Shown here: positions 1-30,895 of the stretch, piece after piece
How the letters are laid out: each line of letters opens with the position of its first letter
How positions within the stretch are numbered: the stretch's first letter is position 1
Source of the DNA: an uncultured virus (IMG/VR IMGVR_UViG_3300002175_000051)
Taxonomy: Duplodnaviria; Heunggongvirae; Uroviricota; Caudoviricetes
DNA: 64,000 nt
Virus record (IMG/VR): IMGVR_UViG_3300002175_000051
Strand: one strand, 5' to 3'
Notes under the pieces: model-generated
Databases searched by the model: none
What the model saw: the letters and a program-made list of their open reading frames with translations, nothing else
What the model was told of the DNA's origin: nothing
Made by a program: the position numbers and the translations under genes

Positions 1-3000
1 CGTTGCGGTCCATCAGGTAGTCAATTACGCCGTCAAGCAACAGGTCCAGCGCTATCCCCACCGCAAACAGGACTATGCCGGCAACAAGGCCTATGCCTGT
101 GCCGGCGAAGATCCCGCCGCCGGACTTTATCGTATTTAAAGCCCCTTTTAGGGATTTTGCCGTCTTAAATACTTTAATCGCCTGCACAACATTCGTGCCG
201 GCGTTTTTTACATTGCCCCAAAGCTTGGCCCACCTGCCAAATTTAATAGACACGAAGATGCTTTTGCTTACGATAAACGCATTATACCCAGTTATAGCCA
301 TTTGGCTTGCGTCCCTGATTAAGTGGTTATACTTGACAATAAATTTATCGTAATAATCGTTTAGCGAATCCAACGCGCCGGCGTACTCGACATTTGTCTT
401 GAAACTTTCCAAAGCGGAAAACGCCCCGGCTATTTTCAATAAATTAGCATAAACCGTGCTTTTGCCTGTTTCGTTTATCGCCTGGAAGGTGCATAAGTCA
501 ACATATATGGAAGTCGCAAAGCCTTGTATGTTCAAGGTATGTATGACTTGCCTTACCTCAGCGAGACCTATCACATCGGCAAAATTGTCCACGATATAAA
601 TTACGTCGTGCGGTTTTATTTCCGCCGCGCCTAAAACTATGATGGGGTTTTGGTACATCATGGAAAGGGAATTCTGTAAATAGCGGGTTGACATCTGCCT
701 TATATTGTCTTCGGTAGGCGTCTGCCCGGTCAGCGCACCGCCTACATAGCGCACGCCGTCCTCTATGACGCCCGACACAAGCGGGATGTTGGTATATACG
801 CTGCTGTCTATGTTCCTTGTTTTTTGGAGGGACGGGTTTATGGTATTGTCCGCATACACAACGGACCCCATCTTAACGGTGCTTCCCTGTACATAGGAGC
901 ATATGCAAGCCGTAGCTTTTATCGCGTCCGCCGACGCCACTATCTGGTTGTCAATAATGCTTGTGCCCGAGGTCAATATATGGAACTGCGAAAAAGGCTT
1001 TACATGTTCAAAGACATGCATGTTGGAATTATTGTTTTTGTATGTTTTCCCTATTTGCGGCTCACGGTCGGTAAAAAATAATTTTTCCGGCGCCGTGCCA
1101 AACTGGAAATACAAATCCTGATCTAAAATATCAGGCGTAACCTTCCCCAGTGAGTGCTTATATTTAACATTCCAAAACGGCGAACCGAAAAATATCCTTG
1201 ACTCGAAATGATGGTAGTGCGGGTAGCAAATAAAATCAGGGATTACGGAAGTCGTTTCCTGGAATACGTCCCAAGGCGTTTTATTGTTCAAATAAACGCA
1301 TAAGTTTTTGTCGGCGCCGTCTTTATTTATCATGAAAAATTGTATTATATCCGCAGGGGGGAATATCGCGCTCAGCCATTGGTTTGAATTTTGGCTGTCC
1401 GGAAGCTCGAAGCCGAATATCTCGTTGCTGTTGCGCCAATTTTCGCTTAATGATTTTACTTCCCCGTTATTCGCGTGATATATGTTTTTGATAACGTCAT
1501 ATTCTTTATACCATTCCATTTGGGCAAATATCAGGTTCCGGTTCATTACATCCTGATCGCTGTCGCGTTGGCGGTCTGTCCTCGTCGCCTTTGTGACGCC
1601 TGACGCTATCCCGAAATGCTCAATGCCGAACTTGCTGTTCTCGCCCCAGGCAGATTCTATTAAATTCGACCACTTATTAGATATTGCCGTCATAACATGG
1701 CCGATGACGTTGGCAGGCTCCCTGCCATATTTAAAGGTGCCTGTATGGGCGTCTTCTTTGTCTTCCGTAAAAATATTGTTTATCAGTTCCATACCGTCTG
1801 ACTGGCAAACAATCTGCATGACAATGTCGGTATTTATTTGAGTTATATAGCCGTTGAAAACAGTAGGCAGGAGCGCGGCGTTATTCCCGTACCCTATCCT
1901 TATATGTACCCTTACCCCATCCTCAAGCTTTACGGATTCTAACAGGACCATGTGGTTCTCAAGCATCTTGCGGTCAAGGTTAGGGCTGCCGAAATCGAAC
2001 TTTTTATAATAGTCGGGGTTGACTAATTGATCTTTCCAGTTGGTATTGTATAAATTATTGAATGTGTTCGATAAAAGTATGGTTGCCGTATGGTTAGGGT
2101 ATTCGCGGCTTTGATGCACCTCAATTTCAAGCGCGGACGTAGTGATATAGTAGTTGCCCCACATCTTTCTGCCGTCCAGCCAGCTAGGCCCTTCGTCAAT
2201 AAATGAAATCAGGTATGTAGGGAAGGCCCTGTTCAGTTTGCCGCGCTTGCCGTATTTAATCATGTCGTGGCACATGCGCTCCGCTACAAATTGGAACACG
2301 GGCAGCGGCCTTTCGGTGCTTGTTAAATACTCGCTGGGGCTTTGTATGATGCAGTCGGCGCCAAGGGCCTTTAAAAACAACGGGCTGACCGTTTGCTTCC
2401 TTTTTTCTTTTTCATATCTTATATTTAAATCTTTTTCCGGGAACTTAAATAATTGCAATACGCTTTCCGCTTCGGGGAGCTTTTCAAAGCCTGACGTATC
2501 CAGGATGCTGTAGCCGATATAGAAATCAGGGTCAACATAACACGCGCCATTTGCCGCCCTTGTCTCCCGCAGCCCGCCATATATTTTATTCGCGGCCCTG
2601 AACGCGTTTATTGCCTTTAACACCTTATCGAAAGTTTTATACGACGGAAGCTCCAGGTCCTGATATAAATTAACGTTCAATAATTTCTGTTCCGCATAAC
2701 AGTCCTGCCTTGCTTTAGTCTGTATGCCCATATAAGTTTTCCAGATTACCTGCTCCGACGTGTCAGGGTTTAATACGTCCTGATCGCCGTCTTTTACCGT
2801 AAAGGGGTTAAAGGCGTACAGGCCTTCCTTAAACCTTTGGGTAGGCTCGTAGCTTATCAATTTCATGGCTATTGTATAGACATTAGGGAAATCAGGGACA
2901 GTGTCGATATTGATTGTCTCTATGAAAACGTAGTTGACGCCGAATAGCTGGAATATGTCATTGACAATTTTACAGAAGCCTACAAAATACTGCGCCTTGT

Positions 3001-4291
3001 ATTTTTTGGCGTTGTCGTCTATTATCTGCTTTATTATTGTGATCGCGGACGCCACCGCCTGGTTCGTGGTAACGGCATTTAAATTAAACACTATGTCCCC
3101 GGCCCCTATGAACTGGGATGTCGGCATGTTATAGTTGCTCATCTGTATATCCGGGATAATATTCATCAGGGACACGGCAATATATTGTATCTGCATGTCA
3201 ATTGCCGGGAGTACCCCTTCTTTTATATTGTCCTCTTCGTCGTTAAACAGCGTTAAAATATCCTCGTAATAGTCATGGAGGCTGCTTGGCTTTATGCCGC
3301 TTTCCAAAAGCCGGTCGATAATTTCACTGTTTAAAATTTGAATGGATATTTCTTTGCCGATAGTGTCCGAATGAATATTTTTCTTTACCGGCTCAAAATA
3401 AACAATGCTGTCGCGTTCCGGGCTGTCTATTATAAGCTGCTGGTAATACCACCTGAAGACATCCCAATCAAACATATCGTGGAACGAGTAGCTTATATTT
3501 TCAATGTAAGGGTCAACGTTAAATTCCCTGAGTACAAGCTCTACCTGTAGGCAATAAGGGAAATCCGGGACAGTGGATACGTTCATTGTGATAAGCGACA
3601 CATTCCATATCCCATATTCAAGGTTTAAAAGCTCGTTGCGTATAGGCAAAAAAGGCGTCCTTTTAAACTGCGCAAGGAGGCTCCTGAACCCGTCGATATA
3701 ATATTCCATGTCAGGCTGTCTGGTATTGCCCACTCTATTGGACCACCATGCGTTTCCCGTGGCCGCAAGTGAAAGGGAAAGGGCGGGGTCGCTGAACGGC
3801 GATTTTACCCTGTATCCGTTTATATCGTCCAGCCCGTTGAACCATAGCGGTATATGTATCGTCCTTGTCGAGTAGCCGTTGTTCTTTTTAATCGAGTTGG
3901 CCTGCCTAAGCCCGATTACGCTTTGTACGTTGGAAGACGTGGTAACGGATATGGAAAGCGGGGGGACTGTAAACTTACAGTCCCCTATGCGCATCTCGTT
4001 CATGTCCGGGACCCTGAAAGGCATAGGGACATCATTGTCGTAATCCCTTCGGGAATAGGAAAATTCAGATCCGATGTTATAGAATTTTCTATAAAGGTCG
4101 TCAATCTTCGGGGCCTCTATAGGGAAGCCGTCCTTTAAGTTATACCGGACGCCGTTTAGGTAAACGTCCAGCTTAGACTTGTCCCATTCTTTCCTTTCAG
4201 CTTCCGCCGCTTGCTTTCGGAGTTTTTCCTTTTCTTTCTCAAGCCTCTTTTGTTCCCTTGCCGTATATGTTTGAAAGCTTTGGCCCGCCAT
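1..4291 (-). CDS. Large baseplate hub/tail-associated protein, truncated by the left window edge (>1429 aa)
   Basis: Not in the ORF track because it is incomplete. ATG at 4291 after GAAGGA gives MAGQSFQTYTARE..., and the frame matches at the left edge (...GVIDYLMDRN); spot-checked, not every codon read. Contains hub-like segments (LEIEVHQSRE..HTATILLSN; RVHIRIGYG..TVFNGYITQI) and lies downstream of the tail genes. Confidence 0.7.
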   Translation of the reverse strand, partial: MAGQSFQTYTAREQKRLEKEKEKLRKQAAEAERKEWDKSKLDVYLNGVRYNLKDGFPIEAPKIDDLYRKFYNIGSEFSYSRRDYDNDVPMPFRVPDMNEMRIGDCKFTVPPLSISVTTSSNVQSVIGLRQANSIKKNNGYSTRTIHIPLWFNGLDDINGYRVKSPFSDPALSLSLAATGNAWWSNRVGNTRQPDMEYYIDGFRSLLAQFKRTPFLPIRNELLNLEYGIWNVSLITMNVSTVPDFPYCLQVELVLREFNVDPYIENISYSFHDMFDWDVFRWYYQQLIIDSPERDSIVYFEPVKKNIHSDTIGKEISIQILNSEIIDRLLESGIKPSSLHDYYEDILTLFNDEEDNIKEGVLPAIDMQIQYIAVSLMNIIPDIQMSNYNMPTSQFIGAGDIVFNLNAVTTNQAVASAITIIKQIIDDNAKKYKAQYFVGFCKIVNDIFQLFGVNYVFIETINIDTVPDFPNVYTIAMKLISYEPTQRFKEGLYAFNPFTVKDGDQDVLNPDTSEQVIWKTYMGIQTKARQDCYAEQKLLNVNLYQDLELPSYKTFDKVLKAINAFRAANKIYGGLRETRAANGACYVDPDFYIGYSILDTSGFEKLPEAESVLQLFKFPEKDLNIRYEKEKRKQTVSPLFLKALGADCIIQSPSEYLTSTERPLPVFQFVAERMCHDMIKYGKRGKLNRAFPTYLISFIDEGPSWLDGRKMWGNYYITTSALEIEVHQSREYPNHTATILLSNTFNNLYNTNWKDQLVNPDYYKKFDFGSPNLDRKMLENHMVLLESVKLEDGVRVHIRIGYGNNAALLPTVFNGYITQINTDIVMQIVCQSDGMELINNIFTEDKEDAHTGTFKYGREPANVIGHVMTAISNKWSNLIESAWGENSKFGIEHFGIASGVTKATRTDRQRDSDQDVMNRNLIFAQMEWYKEYDVIKNIYHANNGEVKSLSENWRNSNEIFGFELPDSQNSNQWLSAIFPPADIIQFFMINKDGADKNLCVYLNNKTPWDVFQETTSVIPDFICYPHYHHFESRIFFGSPFWNVKYKHSLGKVTPDILDQDLYFQFGTAPEKLFFTDREPQIGKTYKNNNSNMHVFEHVKPFSQFHILTSGTSIIDNQIVASADAIKATACICSYVQGSTVKMGSVVYADNTINPSLQKTRNIDSSVYTNIPLVSGVIEDGVRYVGGALTGQTPTEDNIRQMSTRYLQNSLSMMYQNPIIVLGAAEIKPHDVIYIVDNFADVIGLAEVRQVIHTLNIQGFATSIYVDLCTFQAINETGKSTVYANLLKIAGAFSALESFKTNVEYAGALDSLNDYYDKFIVKYNHLIRDASQMAITGYNAFIVSKSIFVSIKFGRWAKLWGNVKNAGTNVVQAIKVFKTAKSLKGALNTIKSGGGIFAGTGIGLVAGIVLFAVGIALDLLLDGVIDYLMDRN

Positions 4292-4336
4292 AAGCATTCC
4301 TTCTTTAAATTTAAATTTCTTTTTATTATTAATAAA

Positions 4337-7300
4337 TTAAATAATGTTTGAAATTTTATTTGAAATCCACCTGTCGTTAATGGCCGATCTTTGATTGACA
4401 AATGTTATGTTGCTGTTCCCGTCCATGCCGGCTTTTTGAAGCACGGTGTCCAGCTTGCTTTGGCTGTCTTCCTGTTTAGGCGAGGTTGCCGAAACGGAAG
4501 CGTTGACTTTATTGTTGTTGCGCATATATACAGTTTTGCCAAATGCCCCGCCCATAGGCGTAATATTTGAGGACGATTGTCCTTGCTGCCCGGCAACCAG
4601 GCTTTGGCTTTTTGGCTGCTCCTGCGGGCTGTCGGCTATCAGAGGGCCTTTGCCGGTCGAATTTGCCCCTATGATAAAAGCCACTACGCCAATCGCGCCG
4701 GCTGCCAGTAATAATGATTTGCTGTCAAATTTGGCGGCAGGCAATGAATCCAGCGTATCCGCCAATTGGCGCTTCTGCATACCCAAGCTGCCGTAAGCCC
4801 TGTTCAAAGCGCTTTGCCTTGCCGCCGGCGCGGCAGCTTTAGGGAGCGCCTCAAACTGTTTGGCGATTTCTTCGGCATCGCCCATCCTTAAATTTCTGCC
4901 TATCGAATCGATTGAACCAAGGAATGCGCGCTGCCAATCGTCAGCTTGGTCAAAAGCCGTACGCTGCGCGTTCGACAATTTTGCCATGTCGAGGTTGGCG
5001 GTTATTATCCTTTTTGAAGCGGCCGCCCGCGCCCCAGCATTTTTAAGGTTTTCGTTAAACTCGGCAAGCATTCCGCCTGTATCGGCATTGTCGTATAGGA
5101 GCCCTTTGGCTTTTAATATACCGATGTCGCGGTTAAAATTAACCATTGCTTGCCCGGCCGCGTCCAACGATCTAAAAGCAACGTCGTCAATAGTGTTTAA
5201 AGTCAGCCGCCTTGCCGTTTCCGAAACGGTAGGCAGCAGGCCCATGTCCTGTTTTATCAACTGTTCCGCGTCCGCAAGCATTTTAGCTGTATCGCCATAT
5301 GCAAGTTTCCTGCTCCTTGTCATGGCGTCGTCGAAATACTGGTTCAGAAGGGCCCTGTTACCCGGCGAATAAATATCCTCAAGGGTCCGCATGAAGAATC
5401 GGCTTTGATCCGTAAGGCCATCGACTAGGTTTGCTTCTTTCTCGTCTATCTGCCGGAGTATTCTCCTTACTTGCCCAAATGCCTCTTGGCGTTTTGCTTC
5501 TGACCCCATATGGAGGTTATTGATGGCGTCCCTGTATGCTTCGCCCCAGTGGGGCCCTATACTTTTGCCGACATGCTTGGTTGAGATAATATTCTGCTCT
5601 ATGGATTCAAGGGTATCCATGAAACGGAGCTTATTTAAGCCTTCTTCCGTATTGGTCCCGAAAATGCTTATGGCAAGCTCGCGGATGTTATAGTTGGGTA
5701 TGCTGGCAAGGCCTACGTTTGGCGTCAATGTGCCGTGTACTTGGGTCGCGAGTATTTTTTTGTCGCTCATGTATAAAGCGAACTCGTTTGCCCATTGTGC
5801 GTATGTCTGGCCTTCAGACTGCCTCCATTTAGGCAGATCTTTAAGCCAGCCTTCTTCTGTTTCCCTGATAAGGCGTGATACGTCGAAAGCGCTTGCCGTA
5901 GGATCTGTCAAACCCATTTTTACTTTGCCTTCAAGCACATCCGCATAGGCGGAAAGGTTGCCCCTTGCTTGCAAGTCTACAAGCGTCCTGAATTGATCCC
6001 GCAGATCAGGGCTGCCCTGCTTCTCGAACACTACGCCGAATATGTCCGTTATGTCGCCGTCCACGTCGCCCGCAAACTGCTTCATGGTCATGGCGAGGGA
6101 ATACATCGTATTGCCCTCTATGCCGCGGTCTAAGAGTATCCTGGACGCCTGCACGGACTTGGCGCCTATGACAGGGCGCCGCGCTGTAATGCCGAACGTG
6201 CCGTGCTGTTCCAAAAACCTAAGGTTCTCCTCTACGGCCAAGAAATCTTTTGAGAATCCCATGTCTTCGAATGTTTTGAGGCCTACGAAAGTAAGGTTGG
6301 GTATCTCCGCTTGCCCTTGTTTGTTGATCGTCATCCATTTGTTTATCTGATCCGCCAATTTAACATTGGTAGATTCAATCGCTGTTATATCAACACGATT
6401 GTGTTCGGCGTTCTTCCTGAGCAAATCAGCTATTTCGGACTGGTCTGTTATCCAGGCTTCGGATCCGGCTATTTTTAAGCGTAAATCAGGCGCTATACCG
6501 CGGTATGACATGCGGCCTGACTGCGCAAGGCGTTTGGTCCGCATTATTTCCCTGGCTTTGTCCTTGTCGGCATAGGCAGTTGTAAGCGCCTTCATGTATG
6601 AATCGTATGCTGCGCCTACCCGCGATACCTGGGTATCGGGTATTAGGCCTTCCTCGTATAGTTCAAGCTCGCCCAAGAACCTGTTCGCGGCAGTTTCAAT
6701 TTGTTTTGAGAATACCTCTTCCCCAAGGGTGGCCTTGGATATATTCGGGATATAAACGCGGTCTATATTTTTGCCGCCGTACCTAAAGCCCCGGGATAAA
6801 GTAATTTCAGCTAAACCGTCGTCAGTGCCGAAGAGCGAATATTTGAGCATATCAACGGATGAAGTAGGCGGCAATATAGTGGTCCTGGCCGTTTCTACCG
6901 ATATGTCGCGGAGGTTGCCAAAGTCAATCTCAACGCCTGATTTTACGCCGGTAAACACTTCCTTGTTGGCAAGGAGCGCTTTTTGCAGATTTTGATAGTC
7001 TTTTAAAGCATTGTTTTTATTAAGGGTCAGATCTTCTATCTGATCGGATTGAAGGAAATTAAGTATGCCCATGCGGGCTTCGTTCATCCGGCCTATTTCC
7101 GCTTTGCTTAATTCTGTGTCCGTTATGATTCCGAATACCTGCTCTTCGCGGGCAGTCCATTTTAGGCCTTTCTCGAAACTCAGGGACTCGATATTGGAAC
7201 CTTGGTTTATAGACAGCACGGCAACACGGCTGTCGTCCATATAGCTGATAAAATTCCTGGCGCGCCGCATCTCTTCCGCTGACCCGCTTTTTACGGCCTG

Positions 7301-10300
7301 CGCCATCGCGTCGGACTTTACTTTGTTTATCACGTCTTGCGTGGCCTGGGCAAACTCGGCCGGCCTCTCGGAGAAATAAGTAAAGGCGGACGATTGTCCA
7401 GTTCCGGCCCTTTCCATAAGCCTTTGATCGCCTGTAAGGCCCCTGTTGTATATTTCGTCCATTGCGTCGCTGAGTATGGAACGGTATGCCCCGCCTTCGA
7501 ATGTGGCGGCCTTAAATAAATTGCCCGTTATAATTTCCGACGTGGCTTCATGTTTCCCCAGTTCGCCAAATGACGAATATAAACCGATTTCGATTATGTT
7601 CCCATAGGCGTCCCTCGGGGCTAAATGGTATTGGGCTATCCTTTCCTGTATGTGGCTGCGGAGTACGGACGCCATGGATTTTTCGGCGCCGAGCATTGCT
7701 TTAATCCCGGCTTCTTCCTTTGTATTTACAATGCTCTCTAAAATTACTCGGCCGTCAGTTACGCCGCCGACTATCAGGCCTTTGCTTCTTTCAAAATCAG
7801 AGAGGCTGGAGAACGCGCCTTCTTGGATGTCAACGCCTAAATTGCGGAGCTGTGCTTCCGATAAAATCTTCCCGGTCATTGCTTCGGTAAAATTAGCGCT
7901 GCCAATCCTGAACTGCCTTTGTGAATACGGGGTTATTTGAAGCTTGTTCCCTAATATGCCGGTAATCCTTCCTGTAACCCTGTCATTCCGGATTACCATG
8001 TCTTCCGCGTCCAGGGATGTTACTATGTCTTCGCCTTTAAATACAGACCGGCCGATTAGGTTGTCTATGTCCTGCTGCGTTAAATTATCAAGCTGCTTTT
8101 GCGTAAGCTCTATCGAGATATGCTGGTTCATGCCCAACAGGCGCTGATCCGCAACCCTTTGCGACATTATGCTGGCGCCTTCGTGTACGTTAAATAAGGA
8201 CACAACGCCGAAGTCTTTGCGCACCTGATCCAGCAACTCCGCGCTTATATTTTTAGCGTCGCTTACGATACCCATTTCTACTATGAGTTTTTTAAGATCG
8301 CCTTCCCGGGTTAGGTCGGTAAATATATCAGCGTTTTTCCTAAACGCGTCTTGGATCTCGGTATCGCTGATAGCCATTACCGTTGTCAAAAGCTCGCCAG
8401 TGCCGCGCCCCATCAAGGATTTAGTGGCTTCGTCCAGGCCTGACTTTGCGGCAAAATCACTTACGATTTGGCTCAATGCCCTTTGGTTGTCCACTTGTTT
8501 TTTCGTCAATAAAAAATCGTTTAAAAATATATTTGACGATTCGCCCTGAACCTGCTCTATATTAGCCCGCAATAGGGGAAGCCTCTGCTGGCCCAAGACC
8601 GGGCGTTTCATGGAGTTATACTCGGCAAACGCATAATTGTCCGTAACGGCCGCGGCGGAAGCTATGCCGTCGTCCACATGCTGTTTTTTATTGTGGAACG
8701 AAAGGAGCAGTTTGCCATTATCATCCCTGACCATTTTTAACGCGCCCTCATAGCCTTCGCGGATATACCCCTCCGGGCTTATTTCCGCATGGTAGTCCAA
8801 AAGCCTTTCAAATAGGCCCTGGCCCTCAAACATGTTGCGGTCAAGGGCGACTTTTATGTTTGGGTTGGAGGCAAGGTTAAGATCCTTCCTCCTTGAAACA
8901 GGGTCATAAACCATGGACTTGCGCCAAACCCTCCGAGTAAAGTCTGCGCGCTCCGCCCTTGTCAGCCCGTCCTGCCCTTCCGTAAACAGATCCTCAATCG
9001 TCTCTATAAGCCGCCTTGCGTCGCTTGTAAGTCGGTTGGGCTCCTGCCTTTGGATTTCAAATAAATTGTCAATCATCGAGGCAGCCGCCGGCATGAATTT
9101 GACCTGATCGGCAAGCTCGTTTAAATGGCCGAACGTCCCCCTGACATACTGGTTGTTTATCATAAATTGCGTGGCGTCAATGCCTGATGTCTGGCTTATA
9201 ATGGAGTTTGCTATGCGGTTTACCCGATGCGTGGCGGCCAGCCCAAAACCGCTTTCCAATTGGGACACGATATCGTTCTGGATGGCCTTTGCGGCTTCGC
9301 CGTTTGCCCTGCGCAGGGCGCTTATCATCTCCATTACCGTATCGACCGGGGCCAGCACCAGCTCCCCGGTGCTAGGTTTCACATATGTGTTAAAGCCTGA
9401 CCGGTTCTGGCGTATCATATTGCCCCGCTTTACAAACCCGCCGAATGTATCCGTCCGGTTGACAAGGGTAGGCAGCTTATAAGTCAGGACATTGTCGCCG
9501 GCCTGGCTGATGTCCTGTGTTATCTGCAAATTGGACAGGGCGTTTTTATATTTGCTGCTTCCTATGGCAAGGAACACGTCGTCAGAATCAATGTCCTTAA
9601 AGACGGTAAATGCCGCGCCCTCTTTAAAATCGCGCATTATCCCGGAGCTTCCATATAAGACGCCGCTCAGCTCGTCCAAATGCTTTTGCTGCCACCCTGT
9701 TAAATTCTTAATCTCCTCGCCAATTATGCCTAAGCCCAATTGGTTGAAGCTGGGGCGGAACCTTGACTCCATAGGCAATGAGTCCAGCAGGGACGCGCTG
9801 GGGGCGTTAGCCACGAAGCTTTGCGCACGGCGGAGCTGCGCGTTAATCTCTTTATACGCGTCCTGCGTAAACATAGATTCACGGAATAATTGGCTGTAGC
9901 TATACGTATTTGCCGACAGGCTGTTTAAATTAAAATCCGAGCGCCTGCCAAGCCTGCCGGAAAGCCTGTCTTTATTGGCCATTAATAATTTTGCGAGTTC
10001 CGTCTGGTTCTCATAGACAGAAAATTTAATGTTATAGTTAAAGCTCCCTGTCTTTATCACGTCTTGTTTTTCAAGGTTGCTGACTAAATTCATAAAATTG
10101 AAATAGTCTTCCTGCTTGGATTTGTTGCTTCGCACCCTTTCGCTGTAGAGTACGCCAAGGCTCCTTTTGGCCGTATCAATATTTGATAGATTAAGGCCGA
10201 TCACATTCGTTGCGGATCCGCGCCTGCCATGGTCAATAAATATCGTTTCGGCGTCCCACAGATACCCTTCGTTTGCGCCTAGCAACTGGTTCCTCCCAAG

Positions 10301-12583
10301 GGCGGCGCCGCGCAACACGCTATCGGTCAATTCGTTTGTCTGGACGCCAAGGCGGCTGGCTACCTCCTGTTGCATAAGCCTGTTGGCGTTTACATTGCCG
10401 ATGAAATTTTGGACATAGGCGTCTTCCTGTCTGCGCAGCATCCTTGTGCGGTACAGGTTCGCTTCATACCCTTTTTGATAATCACTTAAGCCTGAAGGCA
10501 TATTGGCTTCAAGCTCGTTTGTGGCGTTTAAAATCTTTTTTATATTTTCCGTTTGGATATCATAAGTCTCGCCAAGGATATTCCTTAAGTGATATAAATT
10601 CTCAAACTGGGCCATTCTTACGTTGCCGGCCTTATTGCTGCCGACGAGGTTTTTTATCCCTTCTTGTGAAACCGCCCTGTTTTTATATAAGGACGAAAGG
10701 TATTCGGACACGCTAATGTCCCTGTTGCTGCTTAATGAAGCCTCCTGGGCGGCCGCACTGGCTTTGCCGTACATTTCGTAATAACGGCGCATTTCGTTAA
10801 AGCCGCCGGAATAGCCGGAACCGGGGGTTTGCGTAAACCCTTCGTACAGCCTGCGCGCACGGTCGGCCTGCCGGACGCCTTGCGTGGCCCGGAGCATATC
10901 GTCCGACACTTCGTTCCTGATATACATCTGGCCGAATTTTTGCAGCGATTCCCTGCCCAGCTCAGACTCGCCCATCGGGAGGGCCGTCTGGTTTAATGCC
11001 CGGTAAATAAAACTCCGGTTGCCGTCCGCGTCTTCGAATATATTTAGGCGCAAAGTTTTGTCGCTGTCGCTGAGCCTGTAATATTCCTTTATTTTTTGTA
11101 CGTCCACGCCGCGGATGTTTGACGCTATATGATCGAGCGACACGTCTACGGAGTTTACAAGCTTCATGGCGCTGCCGCGGCCTATCGTATAACCCCTGTA
11201 AAACTGCGGGTCCGGACGATTGTCCGCATCGACGCCGACGAATGCGTCGAGCAGGCCGGTAGGGACGGCTTTGTCAAAATAATAGGTTCCGCCGACGCGT
11301 AAATCGAATGTTTTGTAATTTTGGTTTATGCGTTCTAATGTAGTGTCGGCTAAGCTTGTGCCGAAAAATTTCATCATGTTGCGGTTAATATCCGCTATAG
11401 CCGAATGGCGTGCGCCAGCGTCCCGTATGCCTACAAACGAGTCTTGTATGATGTCATTCAAGGCGTCAAGGGTCATTGCGCCATGCCCCTGTATCTTGCC
11501 CTGCATGGTAGATATAATGCTCTGGGCATGGTTCGAATCCATATGCCCAAGGCGCACCTGGTTGTTTATGGATTCCCGTGCGACGTTTTGCAGCTCGTTA
11601 ATATAGCCCGTAAGATCCCCTGACCAGCCGGCGCGGATGAAATCCAGCGTGTCCGGGAGCATCTTTGAATCAAAGAAATTTGTTATGCCGGCATTTTCCA
11701 AAAACCTTCTTGCCAACGGCATATCAAAATTACGGACATTATGGCCTGAAATATATGTAGGGCTATGGGGGTCAACGACTTTCCTTAAGAGCTGTTTGAC
11801 ATTTTCAGAATTTTCGTTTTGGATCTCCCCGAGCCAAGCGCTGTTTTTGAGCCCCTGTTCCGCAAGGGTTATCGAAGTCGGGCTGCCGGCTATATTCAAT
11901 TCGCCGATGCCGTAATACTGGGTACCGTTATAGCTCCTGTTTACAAATACCTTATCGGTGTCGCCGGAAAGCATGACAAGCCTGGACATTACATTCCTTT
12001 CAGCAGGGGTAAGGCTGGAGAGGGCCTGTTCCGTATTGGCTAACGTACGCGCTTTGTCTATTATCTTTCTGATTTCATCATATTCGTCCGTTACCCCTAT
12101 AATTTTCCCGTTGAGATCCCGTTTATATTGTTCGATCCCAAGCGCTATATTAATTTCGTCGGTGGCCCGCAGCATCCTGGCAGGCGCCCCAGATCTCCCG
12201 GCATTGTTTTGTACCTGGTATTTAACTATCCCTAATTCAGTGAGTACGCCCTTTTCCGTGGCAAACGTTTCTGTGTCCAAGCCGTAAAAAGTGCCGCCTT
12301 TTTGCAGAACATCCTGGTTAAAGCGGTTGAACGTTTCGTATGTAGAAGCAATATCCACATTGGGGTTGCTTGAATTTTCAATCATCGTAACCATGCCGGG
12401 CGCGACGTTGAAGACATTTGAATTTTCAAAATTGGAGCCATTGGCCTTTAAGACAGCGCTAGTCAAATTTGTTTTCGTCTCATTGTCGGCATAATTAGAA
12501 AGCGCATGGTTAAATGCGCTTGAACTGGATCTTTTAGATTTGTTCCCAATGCCTACGCCGACGCCCGTTGTTATAAGATCCAT
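4337..12583 (-). CDS. 2748-aa virion protein: N-terminal DEDDh exonuclease plus putative single-chain double-psi-beta-barrel RNA polymerase
   Basis: DEDDh motifs GLDTET, GHNVRNFD and HSAIAD. Beta-like two-lysine motif GIKAMLGAEKS at ~7680-7712. Beta'-like RRP at 6173-6181 and DVDGD at 6053-6067. C-terminal hydrophobic helix. Confidence 0.7.
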   Translation of the reverse strand: MDLITTGVGVGIGNKSKRSSSSAFNHALSNYADNETKTNLTSAVLKANGSNFENSNVFNVAPGMVTMIENSSNPNVDIASTYETFNRFNQDVLQKGGTFYGLDTETFATEKGVLTELGIVKYQVQNNAGRSGAPARMLRATDEINIALGIEQYKRDLNGKIIGVTDEYDEIRKIIDKARTLANTEQALSSLTPAERNVMSRLVMLSGDTDKVFVNRSYNGTQYYGIGELNIAGSPTSITLAEQGLKNSAWLGEIQNENSENVKQLLRKVVDPHSPTYISGHNVRNFDMPLARRFLENAGITNFFDSKMLPDTLDFIRAGWSGDLTGYINELQNVARESINNQVRLGHMDSNHAQSIISTMQGKIQGHGAMTLDALNDIIQDSFVGIRDAGARHSAIADINRNMMKFFGTSLADTTLERINQNYKTFDLRVGGTYYFDKAVPTGLLDAFVGVDADNRPDPQFYRGYTIGRGSAMKLVNSVDVSLDHIASNIRGVDVQKIKEYYRLSDSDKTLRLNIFEDADGNRSFIYRALNQTALPMGESELGRESLQKFGQMYIRNEVSDDMLRATQGVRQADRARRLYEGFTQTPGSGYSGGFNEMRRYYEMYGKASAAAQEASLSSNRDISVSEYLSSLYKNRAVSQEGIKNLVGSNKAGNVRMAQFENLYHLRNILGETYDIQTENIKKILNATNELEANMPSGLSDYQKGYEANLYRTRMLRRQEDAYVQNFIGNVNANRLMQQEVASRLGVQTNELTDSVLRGAALGRNQLLGANEGYLWDAETIFIDHGRRGSATNVIGLNLSNIDTAKRSLGVLYSERVRSNKSKQEDYFNFMNLVSNLEKQDVIKTGSFNYNIKFSVYENQTELAKLLMANKDRLSGRLGRRSDFNLNSLSANTYSYSQLFRESMFTQDAYKEINAQLRRAQSFVANAPSASLLDSLPMESRFRPSFNQLGLGIIGEEIKNLTGWQQKHLDELSGVLYGSSGIMRDFKEGAAFTVFKDIDSDDVFLAIGSSKYKNALSNLQITQDISQAGDNVLTYKLPTLVNRTDTFGGFVKRGNMIRQNRSGFNTYVKPSTGELVLAPVDTVMEMISALRRANGEAAKAIQNDIVSQLESGFGLAATHRVNRIANSIISQTSGIDATQFMINNQYVRGTFGHLNELADQVKFMPAAASMIDNLFEIQRQEPNRLTSDARRLIETIEDLFTEGQDGLTRAERADFTRRVWRKSMVYDPVSRRKDLNLASNPNIKVALDRNMFEGQGLFERLLDYHAEISPEGYIREGYEGALKMVRDDNGKLLLSFHNKKQHVDDGIASAAAVTDNYAFAEYNSMKRPVLGQQRLPLLRANIEQVQGESSNIFLNDFLLTKKQVDNQRALSQIVSDFAAKSGLDEATKSLMGRGTGELLTTVMAISDTEIQDAFRKNADIFTDLTREGDLKKLIVEMGIVSDAKNISAELLDQVRKDFGVVSLFNVHEGASIMSQRVADQRLLGMNQHISIELTQKQLDNLTQQDIDNLIGRSVFKGEDIVTSLDAEDMVIRNDRVTGRITGILGNKLQITPYSQRQFRIGSANFTEAMTGKILSEAQLRNLGVDIQEGAFSSLSDFERSKGLIVGGVTDGRVILESIVNTKEEAGIKAMLGAEKSMASVLRSHIQERIAQYHLAPRDAYGNIIEIGLYSSFGELGKHEATSEIITGNLFKAATFEGGAYRSILSDAMDEIYNRGLTGDQRLMERAGTGQSSAFTYFSERPAEFAQATQDVINKVKSDAMAQAVKSGSAEEMRRARNFISYMDDSRVAVLSINQGSNIESLSFEKGLKWTAREEQVFGIITDTELSKAEIGRMNEARMGILNFLQSDQIEDLTLNKNNALKDYQNLQKALLANKEVFTGVKSGVEIDFGNLRDISVETARTTILPPTSSVDMLKYSLFGTDDGLAEITLSRGFRYGGKNIDRVYIPNISKATLGEEVFSKQIETAANRFLGELELYEEGLIPDTQVSRVGAAYDSYMKALTTAYADKDKAREIMRTKRLAQSGRMSYRGIAPDLRLKIAGSEAWITDQSEIADLLRKNAEHNRVDITAIESTNVKLADQINKWMTINKQGQAEIPNLTFVGLKTFEDMGFSKDFLAVEENLRFLEQHGTFGITARRPVIGAKSVQASRILLDRGIEGNTMYSLAMTMKQFAGDVDGDITDIFGVVFEKQGSPDLRDQFRTLVDLQARGNLSAYADVLEGKVKMGLTDPTASAFDVSRLIRETEEGWLKDLPKWRQSEGQTYAQWANEFALYMSDKKILATQVHGTLTPNVGLASIPNYNIRELAISIFGTNTEEGLNKLRFMDTLESIEQNIISTKHVGKSIGPHWGEAYRDAINNLHMGSEAKRQEAFGQVRRILRQIDEKEANLVDGLTDQSRFFMRTLEDIYSPGNRALLNQYFDDAMTRSRKLAYGDTAKMLADAEQLIKQDMGLLPTVSETARRLTLNTIDDVAFRSLDAAGQAMVNFNRDIGILKAKGLLYDNADTGGMLAEFNENLKNAGARAAASKRIITANLDMAKLSNAQRTAFDQADDWQRAFLGSIDSIGRNLRMGDAEEIAKQFEALPKAAAPAARQSALNRAYGSLGMQKRQLADTLDSLPAAKFDSKSLLLAAGAIGVVAFIIGANSTGKGPLIADSPQEQPKSQSLVAGQQGQSSSNITPMGGAFGKTVYMRNNNKVNASVSATSPKQEDSQSKLDTVLQKAGMDGNSNITFVNQRSAINDRWISNKISNII

Positions 12584-12595
12584 ATGATCACCCGT

Positions 12596-15500
12596 CTATG
12601 CAAATAAATTAGCGCGTTTATTCTTTATATACCTTTCTATTTCCCTGTATTGGTCATATTTGAGGTTCATGCTTGTATCGTCCTGGTGCGACGGCAGGGT
12701 GTTGATCGCAATATCCATGTACCCCTCGCGTGAAAGGAGTTCCGTCAGCCGCCGGCGTACGTCGTCCGCCTTGGTCTTATACGAAATATGGGGCATGGGG
12801 ATGTTGGTCTGCGCTGCGGCGTCCTCATCGCCTTGCCAAATATTAAAATCAGACCTGGACAGGGACTCGTCCATCTTGACAAGCTTGATTTTAACGTCCT
12901 CCATATTGACTTGCTCCTGCCATCCTATCCAGTCCTCGCCCGGCAACTGATGCTCCATGAAGTATTTGACCGGGTCCAGCTTGTCCTCTACGGGGAGCCC
13001 CCATAGGGACTCAAGCGGCCGCCTTAGGTAACGGGGCACTAGCTGCAATATTTCGCCGCGCTCTTCTTCCGGCGCGTCTATAAAATGGCTGAAGTATAGT
13101 TTCTCCGTCTTTGGCAGCGCGGCCATTATATTCTCCACGGGGTCGCCGCGGTCATAGCCCTGCATGGTCTGTTCGGACTGCTGGTAATAGGCAAGCGCCC
13201 TCATGGCGTTTTGCGGCAACTGGTCTATCTCGCGGTAATTATTAATTATATCGATTGCCTTGTTCGTATTTCTCGCTGCTTCTTTCTCGGGCTTGGGGAA
13301 AAGGTTCAAAAAGCCGCCCTTCATGGATTCCTTGCCTTCAAGGTAGGCCATTTTGTTTACTTCTTTTTGCCCGCCGAACTTGATCCTTCTCTTGGTTTCC
13401 TTCAATGCGTTTGCCGTTGCTTTGCGTTTTTGCCCTTCCTCCCGGCGCTGGCGTATATATTCGCGAACGTCAAATTGATCCTGCTCTAAAGCCTGATCGG
13501 CATAATAGTTATAAAGCCTTTGCGCTTTGATATATTTAAGCATATCGACGTATTCGTTTATCTCGCGCTCTTTTTGGCGGCGCTCCGGTATCCAGCGCTC
13601 ATTGTTTGCCCTTTGGCGCAGCGCCTTGTTGCCCTGCATGACGGCAACCGCGGAAGCCGACACGATAGCCCCCGCCGCTTTCCCAAGGCTGCCGCGGCCA
13701 AACATTGAGCCTACCCACGCGCCGATGGCTATACCTACCACGGGGTTCCTTACCGCGAGGCTTTCATAGCCGGGGATTAGATAATCTTTTATGGGGTTGT
13801 CCCAAACCTGAAAATCTTTCGAAAACAGATGCCGTCTCTTATAAGACTCCAAAGGCGAACGGACTTGAAGCAGCTTGGTATGGAATATCGTGTCCATATG
13901 GGAAAAGCGCTCCATGGCCGCGCCCATCCGGATCTCGGAAGGCGTGAACCGTGCGTGGACTGACGCCGGGGAATAATCGTCTTCCCGTTCCTTTCCATAT
14001 CCTTCGTCCAAAAGCATTTTATTTACATTGACGCTGCCCCTATAGACGACAGCGGATATAGTTTTATAAGTATCTTTATTCATAACGTTTATAGGGTCGG
14101 GATCATAGCCGATAGTGAGCCTTGCGCCCGCATAAAATATCATGCCCGTCCTTTCCTCGTCTTCTTTCAGCAGGTTGATCCCCGCGAGTTTGACGGGGGT
14201 GTCGCCTAGCTCTTTCGTTAAAAACATATCTGAATCAAGCATTTTGGTTATTGTCACGTCACGCTTAGTTATATTGGCCGTTTTGAATCGGTAGTCATAT
14301 AAACGCAGCGGGTTCTTCTGTTCGCTTACCTGCTTGAGTATCTGCTTGTATTCGGCTTTTTGCTGTTCATCCATTTGGATGCCGGACATTTGGGACTTAT
14401 AAAATTTAAATTCATCGGAATACGGCGCAACGTCCGCAAGTATCTTAAAACGGTCAAAATACGGGTACATGTCGCCGGGCGTTATCTCGCCGGAGTCAAG
14501 TTTCGCTTGTACCCCTGCCCTCGCGTCCTGAAGCTTCGATATTGTTTCGCGGTAGAGCTTAGGGTCGTAGGTAAACCTTACGGTATATTCCCTTTCAGGC
14601 GGCTCCTGTTTAAGCCTGCGGAAGAAGCCAGTTACGGCGCCGGCGTTATCATCAAACAAATATCTCGTAACTTTCTGTGTATCGCGTTTAGTCATGAAAG
14701 TACCGACTTTGTTTAAAAATGTTTCCTCTTGTTTTTCCGCCTCGCCGCGGCGAATCTTATAATGGATATAGCCAACTTTTTCACCCATCTCGTGCAGGTA
14801 CCAATTGACCTGCGCCTTATGCTCGTAAAAGGCCTCGCCCGTCTTTTTGACCTCGTCAAACTTTGCCTGGTTGACCGTCTTAAGGTCCACGACGGCCCTG
14901 CCGGTAGGGGAGCTGTCGTCGAAGACCAAAGCGTCATACCAGCCTTCTATGCGCAGTTTCCTGTCTTCTATATGACCTTCGGTGTTTATCGCTATGCCGC
15001 TCTGTATAAGCTCCTGTTCAAATTTTTCGTGTTCTTTGGTGCCCATTTCCGTTATGCGCAATACGCGTTCCGGCATAACGTCGTCCTCGTTCATTAAGTG
15101 CGCCATTATCTCATCTTTTGTTTTGCCAAGCGAAGACGACCCGATTTGCATAAGCGTAGGGTCCTTAAGGTTATTAATGCGTTCATAGGCAGCCCCTGGC
15201 AGCCTTATCTCGCCCATCTTAATTGTTGTGTTGTGAGTAACAAAACCCATAACGCTGAATGTGTTATCACTATCTACTTCAAATCCATATACATAATCTA
15301 TATCAATTTCTTTTATTGATTTAATGGTACTATAAATGTATTGACTATCTGTCCATGATTCAACATGAGGGATATTATTATTGATATAGTCAAAATTTAT
15401 AAGTTTTTCTTTATAAAGTAATCCTGATAAATTATAATTCCTGAGATGAATAGAGTGTATTGTTACAATATAGCAATCCCTTTGATTATGTTTTTTGTAT

Positions 15501-18500
15501 TGTGCTGGTATACCGCTTTCCATAGAAAGACGATATATATCTTGCGCTAATAATTCATTTGCAGATGACATTATAAGTAATCTATTTTTTTCTATGTAGC
15601 CATCACCAAGGCAATACGCTAAAATAGCTTCTCTCTTTATGTCATTTGGTGCTTCATAAAGAATTTGGGGAACACGTTTATCATATAGATTTCCAGGTAT
15701 TATATAATCAAATATTCGTGCTATTTTTGCGTTATTGATAATAACTTCTGTATTATTGTTTTTTATATCCAATGAGATATTTTGATTAAAGTATTTTTTA
15801 AAATATTCTTCTAATTTTGAAATTATATCATTTTCGGTAGAACCTAAAGAAAACACAAGCCTTACCGGTAAATTGTCTTTCCCTTTTTTCCCTGTAGAAC
15901 CTTCAGAAAGATATAAACCTATCAACCATGCTGTTTCTTTATTAAGTGGCAAATATCCATTTATAAAATTTGGTTTCCATTTGTCTTTTCCATAAATTAA
16001 ATATTCATAATAAATTTCTGTTTGAAAATTAGAGTAAATAGGTATTGGATAGACAACATAATCAGTTTTAGGGTTAATATCTTTTGCTTTTATAAATTCT
16101 ACTTTGTCATGCCATTTTGGGTTACAGTATTTATATGTATCGCAAAAACCATTGATATTTCTAATATGTGGTCTGCATATAGATGAAGAATTAAGAGAAC
16201 ACCTTCCTGTAATTCTTTTGATTAAAATAGGATGATCTTCTGAAAATATGAAATCTATTTTCTTATCTATCCCTGCAACCTCAAATTTATATGCTTTTTC
16301 ATTAGGTAATAATGGTCTTTTCATAATATTAGTAATAGGCATACGATTCCCCTTATGAGTTAATATAATATCGCCTTTTTTTACATCTTTCGCTATTATA
16401 TACCCATGGGTTGTGTCTATCAACGTATCTTCTGAAACACAGTACGGGTCCCCGCGCCGGAAATTATAGAAAGCCCCGTCGCCGGGCAGCCATGCGGGCA
16501 TTTTATTCAGTATTGGGTTATAGGACTGGTCCTCGTACCTTGTTTTTGGTATGAACCTGCGGAACACTTCGGAAAGCTCCCCGCCAAGGCCGCCAAGATC
16601 CCGGCTCCAGAAGCTGTGCTTAAAAGAGCCCAAAGGCGTTGCGGATTCTATTGTCTGGGTTTTGAGGAAAGGGTCCTCGGCCGCCTGGCTTACTATGAAC
16701 CCGTACATGCCATACATATCCGTCCATTGGCGGTATACTTGGCTAAGCGTATGCTGCGCCCCATAAGGGGCCTTTGTCTGTATTAGGTTGTTGGGGTACA
16801 CGGAAATGCTTGTGCCGGTCGGGGCCCCCGGGCCCATTGGCGCTTCCCCGGTTTCCCTTTGTGTTGCCATGGCAGTCTGCCCTTCGGGCGATTGGCCTGA
16901 CACAATCGTGGACATGTTCATGTCCAATCGCCCGGCCATAAAAAAATCCTCTGAAAAAGGATCGCGGAGCCTCATTGCGTCCGGTTTTGTTTTTTCAAGG
17001 GACTTGCTCTTAATCTGCCGGTTCAATTCTTCCAAATCAAATACAGTGCCTGATCCGTATAGCCGCTGACCGCCTGATTTTGTCGTCAGCACGGCATATT
17101 CGCGCCCGCTTCTTGCAGCGCCGGGCTGTATGCCCAGCCTCCCGCCTTTTGCTATAGGCGACGCTACGCCATGCATACCGGCCGGTATGGATCCGGCGCC
17201 TTGCACGAACCCGATTTCAGGCACATATACAATTGGCTCAGGTTTTTGCCCCGCAGAGGACAATTGTCCTGACGTTCGCCCCGCAGGCGACGTTCGCCCA
17301 GCCGGCTGCCCTTCTTCCGCCGCGCCGTAGTTTGGGCCCTGCCAATACTCCAAGTGCATTTTTCTTGCCGGCTTTATTATTTTGCCTACAGTCCCGGCTA
17401 CAATCGGGCCTATGAACGGTATCTCTTCGCCGAAAGTAGATGTCATCATATACGGGCGGTCTTCATAATGCTTGCGTTCATAATGATAGCGGTCAAAAAT
17501 GAAATGGTTGAGCGGTGCAAGGGGGTAACGCGGGGTAGGGAACCAGGCGTTTTTAAAATACTCTTTTTCCGATCCGTATAGCGTGTCCGTATACTGCCAG
17601 TTGGATTTGGTCTCGCGGTACCAGTTGTCGCGCCAGTAGGATATACGCCCGCCCGAAAAGGGGGTGTTCCCGAGCCCCCAGTACCGGCCTTTCCGGATTG
17701 GGTCTTTTCCGTACAAATAATAGTTTTCTTTTTCTTCCCGCGTCTTGGACATATCCAAAAAACCAAGCATAGGAATTTCGGATATCTGCTCAAAACCAGG
17801 CATTAGCTTATTCATTCTTTTCGCCCGTTCGGTCAGGCCAATCCTGTCCTTTAATCCGTGCCAAGCCAGGTTAGTGTTTACGCGGGCGTCGGCTATAACG
17901 TTTTCCGGGCGCTTCCCAAAAAAGTTCTCGGATTCGAAATTTATATAGTCCCAAGCCTTAAGCCCTAAATAAACAGGCAAAAACCGTTTGATCAACAAAT
18001 TTGCGACAATCGACTGGGCAGAGCCAGTGCTTTTTGTGCTGAAGCCGAGCCCAAAAGCGGCGAAAAAATTACTTATGCTTGTTGTCCTTGAATAAAGCTC
18101 TAACCCAATAGTGGTAACGTTATGCAAATTATCCGCGCCAAAATGCTCACCGGCCTGCTTTACCCATCTAATGCCGCTCCTGCGCATAGCGTCGCCAAAA
18201 GCCTTGTCGATGGCCTTTTCGATGCCGCCCCTGCGCCCTGCGGTAAACTGGCCTAAAAGGTCGGGGAGGTCTGCCTCGCGGCGGAACACGTCTAACGGGG
18301 TTACGCTTTTTTTTATGCCAATATAATTGGAAACGGCATAGCCGGGCGCGTTCCTGCCATAATCATAAAAACTGAAAGCCTGGTTTATTGTCCGTTTGCT
18401 TATTTGCTCCGCAAATTTTAAACGGTCCATTATAGGGTCAGTGATAAGGTGCGGCAGCGATGTCATATCGTCCAGCTCAAACCCGGACATCCTGGATTCC

Positions 18501-19843: not shown

Positions 19844-20525
19844 CTATAATCCCCTCGTCTTTCCAGTGGTAGCTGCCTATAAACGGGCGGGGGAGTTCGT
19901 CTTTGCCGCGTCTTTGCAGCCCCCATAATGACGTGATAGGGTCAATGCCTTTTTGTATCAGTTCCCAGCTAACCCTATTTATTTCGTCTGTTTCATTCTG
20001 AATTTTATTTTCTTTTGCGCCTTCTTCTTTATCGTCAACGATGGTAAGGGAGGCGTTTTCTTTTTCTTGGATTTTAGTAAGTATGAATTCGGCGCGCGCA
20101 AGGTATAAAACAAATTTATTGTATGTCCATGTGTTCATGACATCGTATGAGAATTCGGGGAACGCCGATTTTATTATCGCCTTTTGCTGTTCGTCAGGGG
20201 AATTATTCATGATCTGCTGGTATACCAAAAGCTTTTTTTCAAAAAGCTTCCCTTCCAGGTCCGAATTTTCTATGATCAAAGGGAACAGGGTAGCCGAAAG
20301 GCCGCCCATGCCTGTGTTATAATAATCAATATTGTCCGGCGCCAAGGTTGCGAGCTGGCATACGAGGTCTTCAAAATCCATCGTGTTCAGCGCAAGCTCT
20401 TTTAGATCCATGAATTCTTTTTTGGTTATGTCACGGAAAACGAACTCATTATTGCCGAACCTGACATAAAATATCCGATTGTCGGGGTAGGCCATCTTAT
20501 ATTGTTTGCGGAAATTCAAATCCAT
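19803..20525 (-). CDS. Tail assembly chaperone-like protein 2
   Basis: Lies between the tube genes and the giant proteins. Shares FVFR..(K/Y)E..E..C...L.P..G with 21178..21756. Confidence 0.6.
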   Translation of the reverse strand: MDLNFRKQYKMAYPDNRIFYVRFGNNEFVFRDITKKEFMDLKELALNTMDFEDLVCQLATLAPDNIDYYNTGMGGLSATLFPLIIENSDLEGKLFEKKLLVYQQIMNNSPDEQQKAIIKSAFPEFSYDVMNTWTYNKFVLYLARAEFILTKIQEKENASLTIVDDKEEGAKENKIQNETDEINRVSWELIQKGIDPITSLWGLQRRGKDELPRPFIGSYHWKDEGIIDAIARQIQGVRIP

Positions 20526-20531
20526 TTTTAT

Positions 20532-21161: not shown

Positions 21162-21177
21162 AGGATCACCTTGTTTG

Positions 21178-26240: not shown

Positions 26241-26261
26241 ATTCTGATCTATAAACCAGGG

Positions 26262-26314
26262 AAATATAAAAAACAAGCTGAAACATGCTTAAATTCGGCT
26301 TGTTTTTTATATTT
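26262..26314. terminator. Bidirectional intrinsic terminator between convergent genes
   Basis: Inverted repeat AAATATAAAAAACAAGCTGAA...TTCGGCTTGTTTTTTATATTT. Confidence 0.8.
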
Positions 26315-26349
26315 ATCGTATAATTAGACCAATGAACGCATATCAGACA

Positions 26350-27519: not shown

Positions 27520-27550
27520 TCTATTTTCACTCCTTATTTTTTAGGGTAAA

Positions 27551-27579
27551 CCGGGCTAACACGACTGTGTTCAGCCCGG
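27551..27579. other. Intergenic hairpin between sheath and tube genes
   Basis: CCGGGCT-AACAC-GACT-GTGTT-C-AGCCCGG. Confidence 0.55.
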
Positions 27580-27587
27580 CTATTTTA

Positions 27588-30869: not shown

Positions 30870-30895
30870 TCCTTATTTTTTTGCTTCTGTGTTAT

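Follow-up and report, generated by a model that had tools for sequence, protein, structure and literature searches.

The window, a stretch of 64,000 nucleotides from an uncultured virus of the Caudoviricetes (IMG/VR record IMGVR_UViG_3300002175_000051), encodes on its minus strand a giant open reading frame (ORF), P0001, which spans positions 4337..12583. It is a genuine coding sequence of 2,748 amino acids (aa), as seen from the ORF list, the translation and the blastp synteny with gp135-gp147 of Bacillus phage 0305phi8-36. The proposal of a catalytic double-psi-barrel region in its C-terminal half, homologous to the one in the bacterial RNA polymerase subunit beta', with the metal-binding loop intact and the fold predicted, is well supported by profile comparisons. 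P0001 is probably an RNA polymerase that is carried in the virion of a contractile-tailed jumbo phage and injected into the host, a reading to which a probability of roughly 55% is given; its mechanism is drawn by analogy with gp96 of Thermus phage P23-45, and activity and fold are putative.

P0001 belongs to a family of seven distinct members, namely P0001 itself, P0002, gp034 of phage KLEB27-3, gp095 of phage WH1, 0920 of phage Edson and two ORFs from viral contigs. Pairwise identity among them is only 17-30%, and conservation was counted in an L-INS-i alignment of the seven, with residues numbered as in P0001. The catalytic signature lies at aa 2135-2177, where the string RRPVIGAKSVQ...GDVDGD resembles the active site of beta', as the initial annotation had noticed by eye; its spacing also stands, since 38 residues lead from the arginine to the first aspartate; the corresponding stretch of E. 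coli beta', from R425 to D460, counts 35. R2135-R-P2137 (6173..6181, minus) is aligned with R425-A-P427 of beta', and D2173-V-D-G-D2177 (6053..6067, minus), the putative metal-binding triad, with D460-F-D-G-D464. Eight residues, R2135, P2137, D2152, T2166, D2173, D2175, G2176 and D2177, are invariant in all seven members. In the two-barrel superfamily, an arginine and a proline some 35-45 residues ahead of the triad have been described as invariant (Rpb1 R446/P448; PMC2919709), and R2135 and P2137, 38 residues ahead of D2173, occupy just this place in the whole family. A third collinear element, absent from the initial annotation, is the KRLAQSGR block at aa 2017-2024 (6512..6535, minus), which hmmsearch aligns with K345-R-V-D-Y-S-G-R352 of beta'; G2023 is invariant and R2024 is kept in six of the seven, being serine in P0002.

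The motif D.DGD by itself is no overwhelming signal in P0001; it was found in 1,122 of 20,000 shuffles of the P0001 sequence. The composite pattern R.P.{28,50}D.DGD occurred in 37 of 20,000 such shuffles, and among the window's 117 open stretches of at least 100 aa, D.DGD is confined to P0001 and a separate polymerase gene. Judged from these counts and the alignment, the beta'-like motif of P0001 is in excess of chance. The conservation of the barrel region (0.56-0.60) is among the highest along P0001 and is equalled only by that of the C-terminal domain. Further conserved blocks follow the barrel at aa 2290-2339 (VGLASIPNYNIR ... IISTKHVG; 5567..5716, minus), with G2291, I2333, S2334 and K2336 invariant in all members; no match of these blocks to beta' was found in hhalign windows.

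A full scan of 1.84 billion representative proteins returned a single relative of P0001, the 3,111-aa P0002, which is collinear with it from end to end at ~23-30% identity and reads RHP ... NADVDGD. At the equivalent gene, KLEB27-3 gp034, WH1 gp095 and Edson 0920 read R-Y-P ... A-D-(Y/H)-D-G-D, and the first two are labelled structural proteins in their records. Profile searches of viral contigs with two family alignments converged on one set of five contigs, with two distinct proteins between them; with two other family alignments no locus was found in viral contigs, nor was any found in genome contigs with two family alignments. Word-index searches with P0001, P0002 and one family alignment brought back the query itself alone, a search of metagenome contigs recovered only the window's own contig, and tblastn of P0001 found nothing in 50,697 phage records. 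P0001 alone showed no relevant match among Pfam, PHROGs and PDB sequences.

The main evidence for homology comes from profiles of the region at aa 2005-2195 (5999..6571, minus). By hmmsearch, the family profile of this region gives one unbroken alignment with E. coli beta' 327-465, which pairs the K-R..S-G-R block, R-x-P and the aspartate loop collinearly. With hhalign, the seven-sequence profile reached a probability of 79.9% against full-length beta' and 91.4% against beta' residues 300-500, covering 133-136 columns of beta' 326-465 at P values from 1.4e-5 to 8.9e-7; controls with reversed sequences gave 0.1-0.3% and E. coli beta gave 0.4%. When 177,635 distinct PDB sequences were searched with three family profiles, RNA polymerase largest subunits made up 32 of 33 matches for the first profile (best E 0.024), 18 of 19 for the second (best E 0.037) and 13 of 15 for the third (best E 0.00099; 22.6 bits over 78 residues), and all of them align at the catalytic loop; these matches are homologous to one another and are therefore counted as one observation. 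The Pfam family RNA_pol_Rpb1_2 (PF00623) gave a single match per six-frame search in five of five Bacillus-type genomes or contigs, always at the P0001-type ORF, with scores of 16.7-21.8 bits. In a feature search of the ESM Atlas, which serves as a lead only, the clusters nearest to the core carry the RdRP family (scores 0.86-0.87), among them the two top-scoring named clusters at 0.86. Taken as homology, residues ~2005-2195 very probably correspond to the catalytic barrel of beta', for which a double-psi fold is predicted. Other domains of beta' were not detected in P0001 by hhalign windows against the E. coli protein.

The position of the gene also favours the reading as a virion polymerase. 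On the minus strand, the window carries a tailed-phage structural module with PHROG matches to large terminase, portal, head proteins and tail sheath, and blastp against the proteins of 0305phi8-36 shows that the gene order from gp135 to gp147 is kept. The order in the window is gp135, gp136, gp137, sheath, tube, tube paralogue, gp142, the chaperonins gp143 and gp144, and gp145; P0001 is flanked by the gp145 homologue and the baseplate hub gene (blastp, tblastn) and thus fills the gp146 slot. The synteny gp143/gp144-gp145-gp146-gp147 confirms for P0001 the tape-measure position, with the tail chaperone genes ahead of it and the baseplate hub behind, and the same order surrounds its counterparts in WH1, Edson and KLEB27-3. 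In record EF583821.1, gp146 is called a 'hypothetical tape measure protein' and given as a virion protein by mass spectrometry; the assignment by Hardies et al. is described as resting mainly on its length and the long tail (PMC2147016). The nearest relatives of the sheath and of the hub/lysin protein are found in 0305phi8-36, Moorella phage MTATph1 and three Bacillus jumbo phages. The initial annotation spoke of a Firmicute myovirus and expected that annotation by position would call the protein a tape measure. Both claims are right, because P0001 occupies the place of gp146 in a module like that of 0305phi8-36: the tail module matches 0305phi8-36-like myoviruses, whose relatives infect Firmicutes, and the counterpart gp146 carries exactly such a label.

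Besides the barrel, P0001 shows three further parts. At the N-terminus, aa ~90-400 (11384..12316, minus) form an exonuclease-like domain with DEDDh motifs; D103, E105, N282, D287, H393 and D398 are invariant in all seven members and compose the motifs D-x-E, N-x4-D and H-x4-D, so that the family has motif I as D-x-E, the aspartate of motif II and motif III as H-x4-D. Database support is weak, though consistent with an exonuclease-like fold. The domain profile matched in the PDB motif II of the RB69 DNA polymerase exonuclease (E 0.079) and Exonuclease I (E 1.4), and its Pfam matches were below threshold (DNA_pol_B_exo1, E 0.015; RNase_T in two of five members, best E 0.057); hhalign against E. 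coli DnaQ aligned motif I alone, at a probability of 0.8%. Near the other end, aa 2622-2642 (4658..4720, minus) make up a single hydrophobic segment resembling a membrane helix; on the Kyte-Doolittle scale it contains the only 19-residue windows above 1.6 in P0001, and its position is conserved across the family. It is followed by a C-terminal domain (4340..4657, minus) shared with 0305phi8-36 gp146.

Two of these parts also occur in relatives that do not have the core. Computed on a set of eight proteins, the family's exonuclease-like profile matches gp146 with E 2.9e-5 and CDS0027 of the Moorella phage with E 9e-14; the family profile of the C-terminal domain matches gp146 aa 2385-2528 (E 3e-6). 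By blastp, P0002 also matches gp146 (E 0.001). Since the exonuclease-like and C-terminal modules are present in core-less relatives, the protein at the tape-measure position is modular, with the polymerase-like core in some branches only. The exonuclease-like module lies mid-chain in gp146 (24624-32237 of locus L001) and in CDS0027 (11513-15442 of locus L002), where the motif D-[IL]-E-T-T lies at aa 1223 and aa 870, respectively. In the Moorella phage a transposase gene stands after CDS0027, and the gene at the tape-measure position may be interrupted there.

A two-barrel polymerase also needs a second, beta-type barrel, which supplies two basic residues and one aspartate (Rpb2 K979, K987 and D837). 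The initial annotation proposed the string GIKAMLGAEKS as the two-lysine motif of beta and named DxDGD, RxP and both lysines as residues to be followed in homologues. The string is present at aa 1626-1636 (7676..7708, minus), and DxDGD, RxP and K1635 are kept by all seven members; K1628 is found in only two of the seven, and no profile signal links this stretch to RNA polymerase beta, so the assignment is not upheld. In the PDB, the profile of aa 1575-1720 matched no beta chain (its eight matches were all T-complex protein 1 alpha, at E values of at least 0.24), nor did that of aa 1940-2135. No second-barrel signal was obtained by hmmsearch against E. coli beta, sliding hhalign windows over aa 1100-2725 reached at most 1.7% against the same protein, below the 2.7% of a reversed control, and RNA_pol_Rpb2_6 (PF00562) had no match in five related phage genomes at E values up to 10. 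Sequence comparison is reported to pick out nothing but the DxDxD region in many phage polymerases and often to miss the second barrel (PMC10770324). A second barrel may have escaped the searches; it is the main gap in the polymerase reading.

Several further observations weigh against a polymerase carried by the virion. One is that no sequence search of the P0001 family detected a beta-like barrel. All database scores are marginal: the scores of PF00623 (13.5-21.8 bits) are everywhere below the cut-off of 25.3 bits, and hmmscan did not find this family in P0001, P0002 or the Edson protein. In hhalign against beta', only the combined seven-member profile is strong, P0001 alone giving 0.2%, P0001 with P0002 1.6% (26 columns, in the right place) and the five Bacillus-type sequences 2.9% (60 columns, in the right place). 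No significant similarity was found between the P0001 family and gp96 of P23-45, hmmsearch giving E 0.057 on four sequences and hhalign 5.6% over 48 columns at the motif. The core profile matches neither gp146 nor Moorella CDS0027, and no D-x-D-x-D-type motif is present in them; the core is therefore not needed for tail building. Lastly, KLEB27-3, WH1, Edson and the complete contig G002 are without the YonO-type polymerase that the window's phage encodes, so a relay of two polymerases is not general.

The model of tail carriage, injection and early transcription takes every step beyond sequence homology from the analogy with P23-45 gp96. This 5,002-residue tape measure protein is described as having an active two-barrel RNA polymerase as its N-terminal part, which transcribes pre-early genes, one of them encoding a second, non-virion polymerase (PMC10770324). 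By this analogy, P0001 would be carried inside the tail tube, contraction of the sheath would drive it out, and its C-terminal end would be anchored at or in the membrane by its helix. The polymerase core would then do without the host enzyme in transcribing the first genes of the DNA that enters, and the YonO-type polymerase gene at 52919-56737 is possibly among them. Catalysis would require a second barrel or an equivalent source of basic residues.

Four other explanations were weighed against this reading. P0001 could serve as a tape measure or in ejection and contain a beta'-type barrel that was captured, has lost polymerase activity and acts as a structural or nucleic-acid-binding module. 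The lack of a detected second barrel fits this view, as do the core-less relatives 0305phi8-36 and the Moorella phage and the very fast evolution of the rest of P0001, which has one relative among 1.84 billion representatives. A relic would be expected to lose its catalytic residues, however, and here the three aspartates and the glycine of the catalytic loop, together with the arginine and the proline, are invariant in seven of seven members at 17-30% identity, in a barrel whose conservation ranks with the highest in the protein; an inactive barrel is accordingly regarded as unlikely. A fortuitous motif in a structural protein that evolves fast and is not homologous to polymerases would agree with the finding that P0001 alone has no polymerase match in Pfam, PHROGs or PDB and reaches 0.2% in hhalign, and with the 37 of 20,000 shuffles that contain the composite motif. 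It is nevertheless very improbable in view of the motif being kept by all seven members, the collinear alignment of 133-136 columns with beta', which takes in the K-R..S-G-R block, and the near-exclusive matching of RNA polymerases in three PDB profile searches.

The two remaining explanations accept a catalytic barrel and differ in its partner or its product. P0001 might be one subunit of a split enzyme, whose beta-type barrel would come from another virion protein, such as the gp145 homologue, or from host beta; the much closer hhalign agreement with bacterial beta' (80-91%) than with gp96 (5.6%) or the phage's own YonO-type enzyme (4.3%, misplaced) would suit a split enzyme, as would the absence of a detected beta-like barrel in the same chain. 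This is improbable, given that five related phage genomes are without a match to RNA_pol_Rpb2_6 at E up to 10, that the gp145 homologue shows only intein parts in Pfam and a Cas4-like nuclease in PHROGs, and that diverged phage polymerases are reported to show commonly only the DxDxD region (PMC10770324). About equally improbable is a two-barrel polymerase of other specificity, a DNA polymerase or primase acting on the entering genome and coupled to its own 3'-5' exonuclease. Such an enzyme would account for the DEDDh-like domain in the same chain, whose catalytic residues are invariant in all seven members and whose weak matches are proofreading domains of DNA polymerases; archaeal PolD is cited as a two-barrel enzyme that makes DNA (PMC10770324). 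The profile matches of the polymerase core point instead to RNA polymerase largest subunits, the exonuclease assignment is weak (0.8% in hhalign against DnaQ), and the exonuclease-like domain is also present in the core-less gp146 and Moorella protein, so that the two modules are not tied together. An injected virion RNA polymerase thus stands as the preferred reading of P0001. A wider proposal, advanced tentatively and with rather less than even probability, is that contractile-tailed jumbo phages of Firmicutes gained a beta'-derived polymerase built into the protein at the tape-measure position, together with an exonuclease-like domain, independently of the Thermus siphoviruses. In phages of the KLEB27-3 type it would be an injected machine of polymerase and nuclease, able to start the infection unaided; its second barrel might be too diverged to recognise, or there might be none.

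The window's phage encodes a second polymerase candidate, P0003 (52919..56737, plus; 1,272 aa), of the YonO/QDE-1 type with the motif ADFDGD, which matches Pfam PF05183 RdRP with E 2e-15 and 56.9 bits (cut-off 23.8). Its counterpart in 0305phi8-36, orf99, is described as a YonO-like polymerase (PMC2147016, PMC2919709, PMC7824862). P0001 has no PF05183 match; the match of this family belongs to P0003. Kinship of the P0001 core with P0003 was considered and rejected, a profile comparison having aligned only eight columns. The two kinds of polymerase are distributed unevenly among the phages. Both are present in the window's phage; KLEB27-3, WH1, Edson and G002 have the tape-measure core and no YonO-type polymerase, 0305phi8-36 has the YonO-type polymerase and no core, and Moorella phage MTATph1 has neither. 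In G001, a near-relative fragment that is 42% complete, the YonO-type polymerase is present and the tape-measure gene lies outside the fragment. In the KLEB27-3-type phages, the tape-measure core is the only polymerase-like gene found.

Among the neighbours of P0001, the gene for the baseplate hub/lysin, the gp147 homologue, lies at 2..4297 (minus) and is open at the window edge; ORF147 is covered to 93% by tblastn (E 2e-121) and the gene matches PHROG 20474. Upstream, the giant ORF at 12596..19843 (minus; 2,415 aa) is the gp145 homologue (blastp E 5e-170 and 5e-102) and carries the Pfam domains LAGLIDADG_3, Intein_splicing and Hint_2. These mark an intein at aa 1136-1539 (window 15227-16438, minus) with Hint parts, a LAGLIDADG endonuclease and the boundaries GDPY|C ... 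THN|T; gp145 of 0305phi8-36 is uninterrupted at the insertion point. Directly after the intein, aa 1559-1697 match Cas4-like/PD-(D/E)XK nucleases in PHROGs, which suggests that this giant 'structural' protein has an enzymatic site. The tail chaperonin region (19803..21756, minus) comprises the homologues of gp144 (19803-20525) and gp143 (21178-21756), with blastp E values of 4e-22 and 2e-25; the pair, adjacent in 0305phi8-36, is here split by an ORF resembling FkbM-type methyltransferases (20532-21161, minus; Pfam Methyltransf_21).

Other features are found farther along the module. Of the 1,093 aa encoded by the tail sheath gene (27588-30869, minus), only the last ~500 and the first ~130 have a match in 0305phi8-36, whose sheath is 717 aa long; hence the protein contains a large insertion. 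A 793-aa ORF (23859-26240, plus) lies on the opposite strand within the tail genes, flanked by the tube gene and the tube paralogue; it has a LuxR/GerE DNA-binding end and a MalT-like TPR region below threshold (36.4 bits, cut-off 45). A TnpB-like gene (39480-40565, plus) with OrfB_IS605 and a Cas12f1-like TNB domain is inserted among the head genes, likewise on the opposite strand.

A tape measure protein that doubles as a virion RNA polymerase has been shown once so far, in Thermus siphoviruses. If the present reading is true, a second case that looks unrelated would suggest that phages have repeatedly come to launch host-independent transcription with a polymerase threaded through the tail, and 'structural' or 'hypothetical' proteins in three cultured Bacillus phages (KLEB27-3 of Bacillus australimaris, WH1 and Edson) would have to be re-annotated. 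As these three family members come from cultured phages, the idea is directly testable at the bench. The family would also bear on the evolution of two-barrel polymerases, with a barrel nearer to bacterial beta' than to the known single-chain phage enzymes and with sister phages that are without the module altogether.

The initial annotation took as its comparator gp66 from phi14:2, a crAss-like phage. Compared by description only, gp66 is likewise a large virion-packaged protein recognised via an aspartate motif; it differs in being a podovirus cargo protein that is not at a tape-measure position and in its motif, DFDxD as opposed to DVDGD in P0001 (bioRxiv 10.1101/2020.03.07.982082), and no chain named gp66 or crAss-like was among the matches of the PDB searches. 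With the YonO/QDE-1 enzymes, P0001 shares a predicted superfamily, and the ESM Atlas clusters nearest to its core carry PF05183, again as a lead only; P0001 itself is without a PF05183 match, unlike the separate ORF at 52919-56737, a true member. For 0305phi8-36, the passages on this phage in Iyer et al. 2021 mention the YonO-like enzyme only. Its gp146 has in common with P0001 the genomic position, the C-terminal domain and the exonuclease-like module, which is located mid-protein (aa ~1205-1539) in gp146 and N-terminally in P0001; gp146 has neither D-x-D-x-D nor a match to the core profile, whereas P0001 has both. Bacterial beta' agrees with P0001 in the collinear K-R..S-G-R, R-x-P and (N)A-D-x-D-G-D elements over ~135 columns, P0002 reading NADVDGD, and differs in that P0001 is a single chain of otherwise unrelated sequence, with no beta partner detected.

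Among known systems, gp96 of Thermus phage P23-45 (PMC10770324) comes closest, rather than gp66; as gp96 is a virion RNA polymerase fused to a tape measure protein, the general idea has been published before, for a different lineage of phages. In a full-text search of the literature from 2023 on, a tape-measure-fused two-barrel phage RNA polymerase was found in the P23-45 paper only. No paper on phages KLEB27-3 or vB_BceM_WH1 was found. In the P23-45 paper's table of two-polymerase genomes, the gp96 profile is confined to Thermus phages, and 0305phi8-36, WH1 and KLEB27-3 are absent from the table (PMC10770324). The two proteins differ in several respects: gp96 comes from a siphovirus and P0001 from a contractile-tailed jumbo phage, the polymerase of gp96 is N-terminal (DFDGD at 779 of 5,002 residues) and the motif of P0001 is at 2173 of 2,748, no metallopeptidase domain was found in P0001 by Pfam scan, an exonuclease-like domain is added in the P0001 family, and the barrel of this family lies closer to bacterial beta'. 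The polymerase of gp96 is reported to have been recognised through its DFDGD motif alone (PMC10770324), and the DxDGD motif was the sole clue to recognition in both cases. Both are giant proteins at the tape-measure position, with a two-barrel-type catalytic loop (R-N-P ... DFDGD in gp96) and one or more membrane segments, and both phages encode a second two-barrel polymerase, which in P23-45 is a non-virion enzyme.

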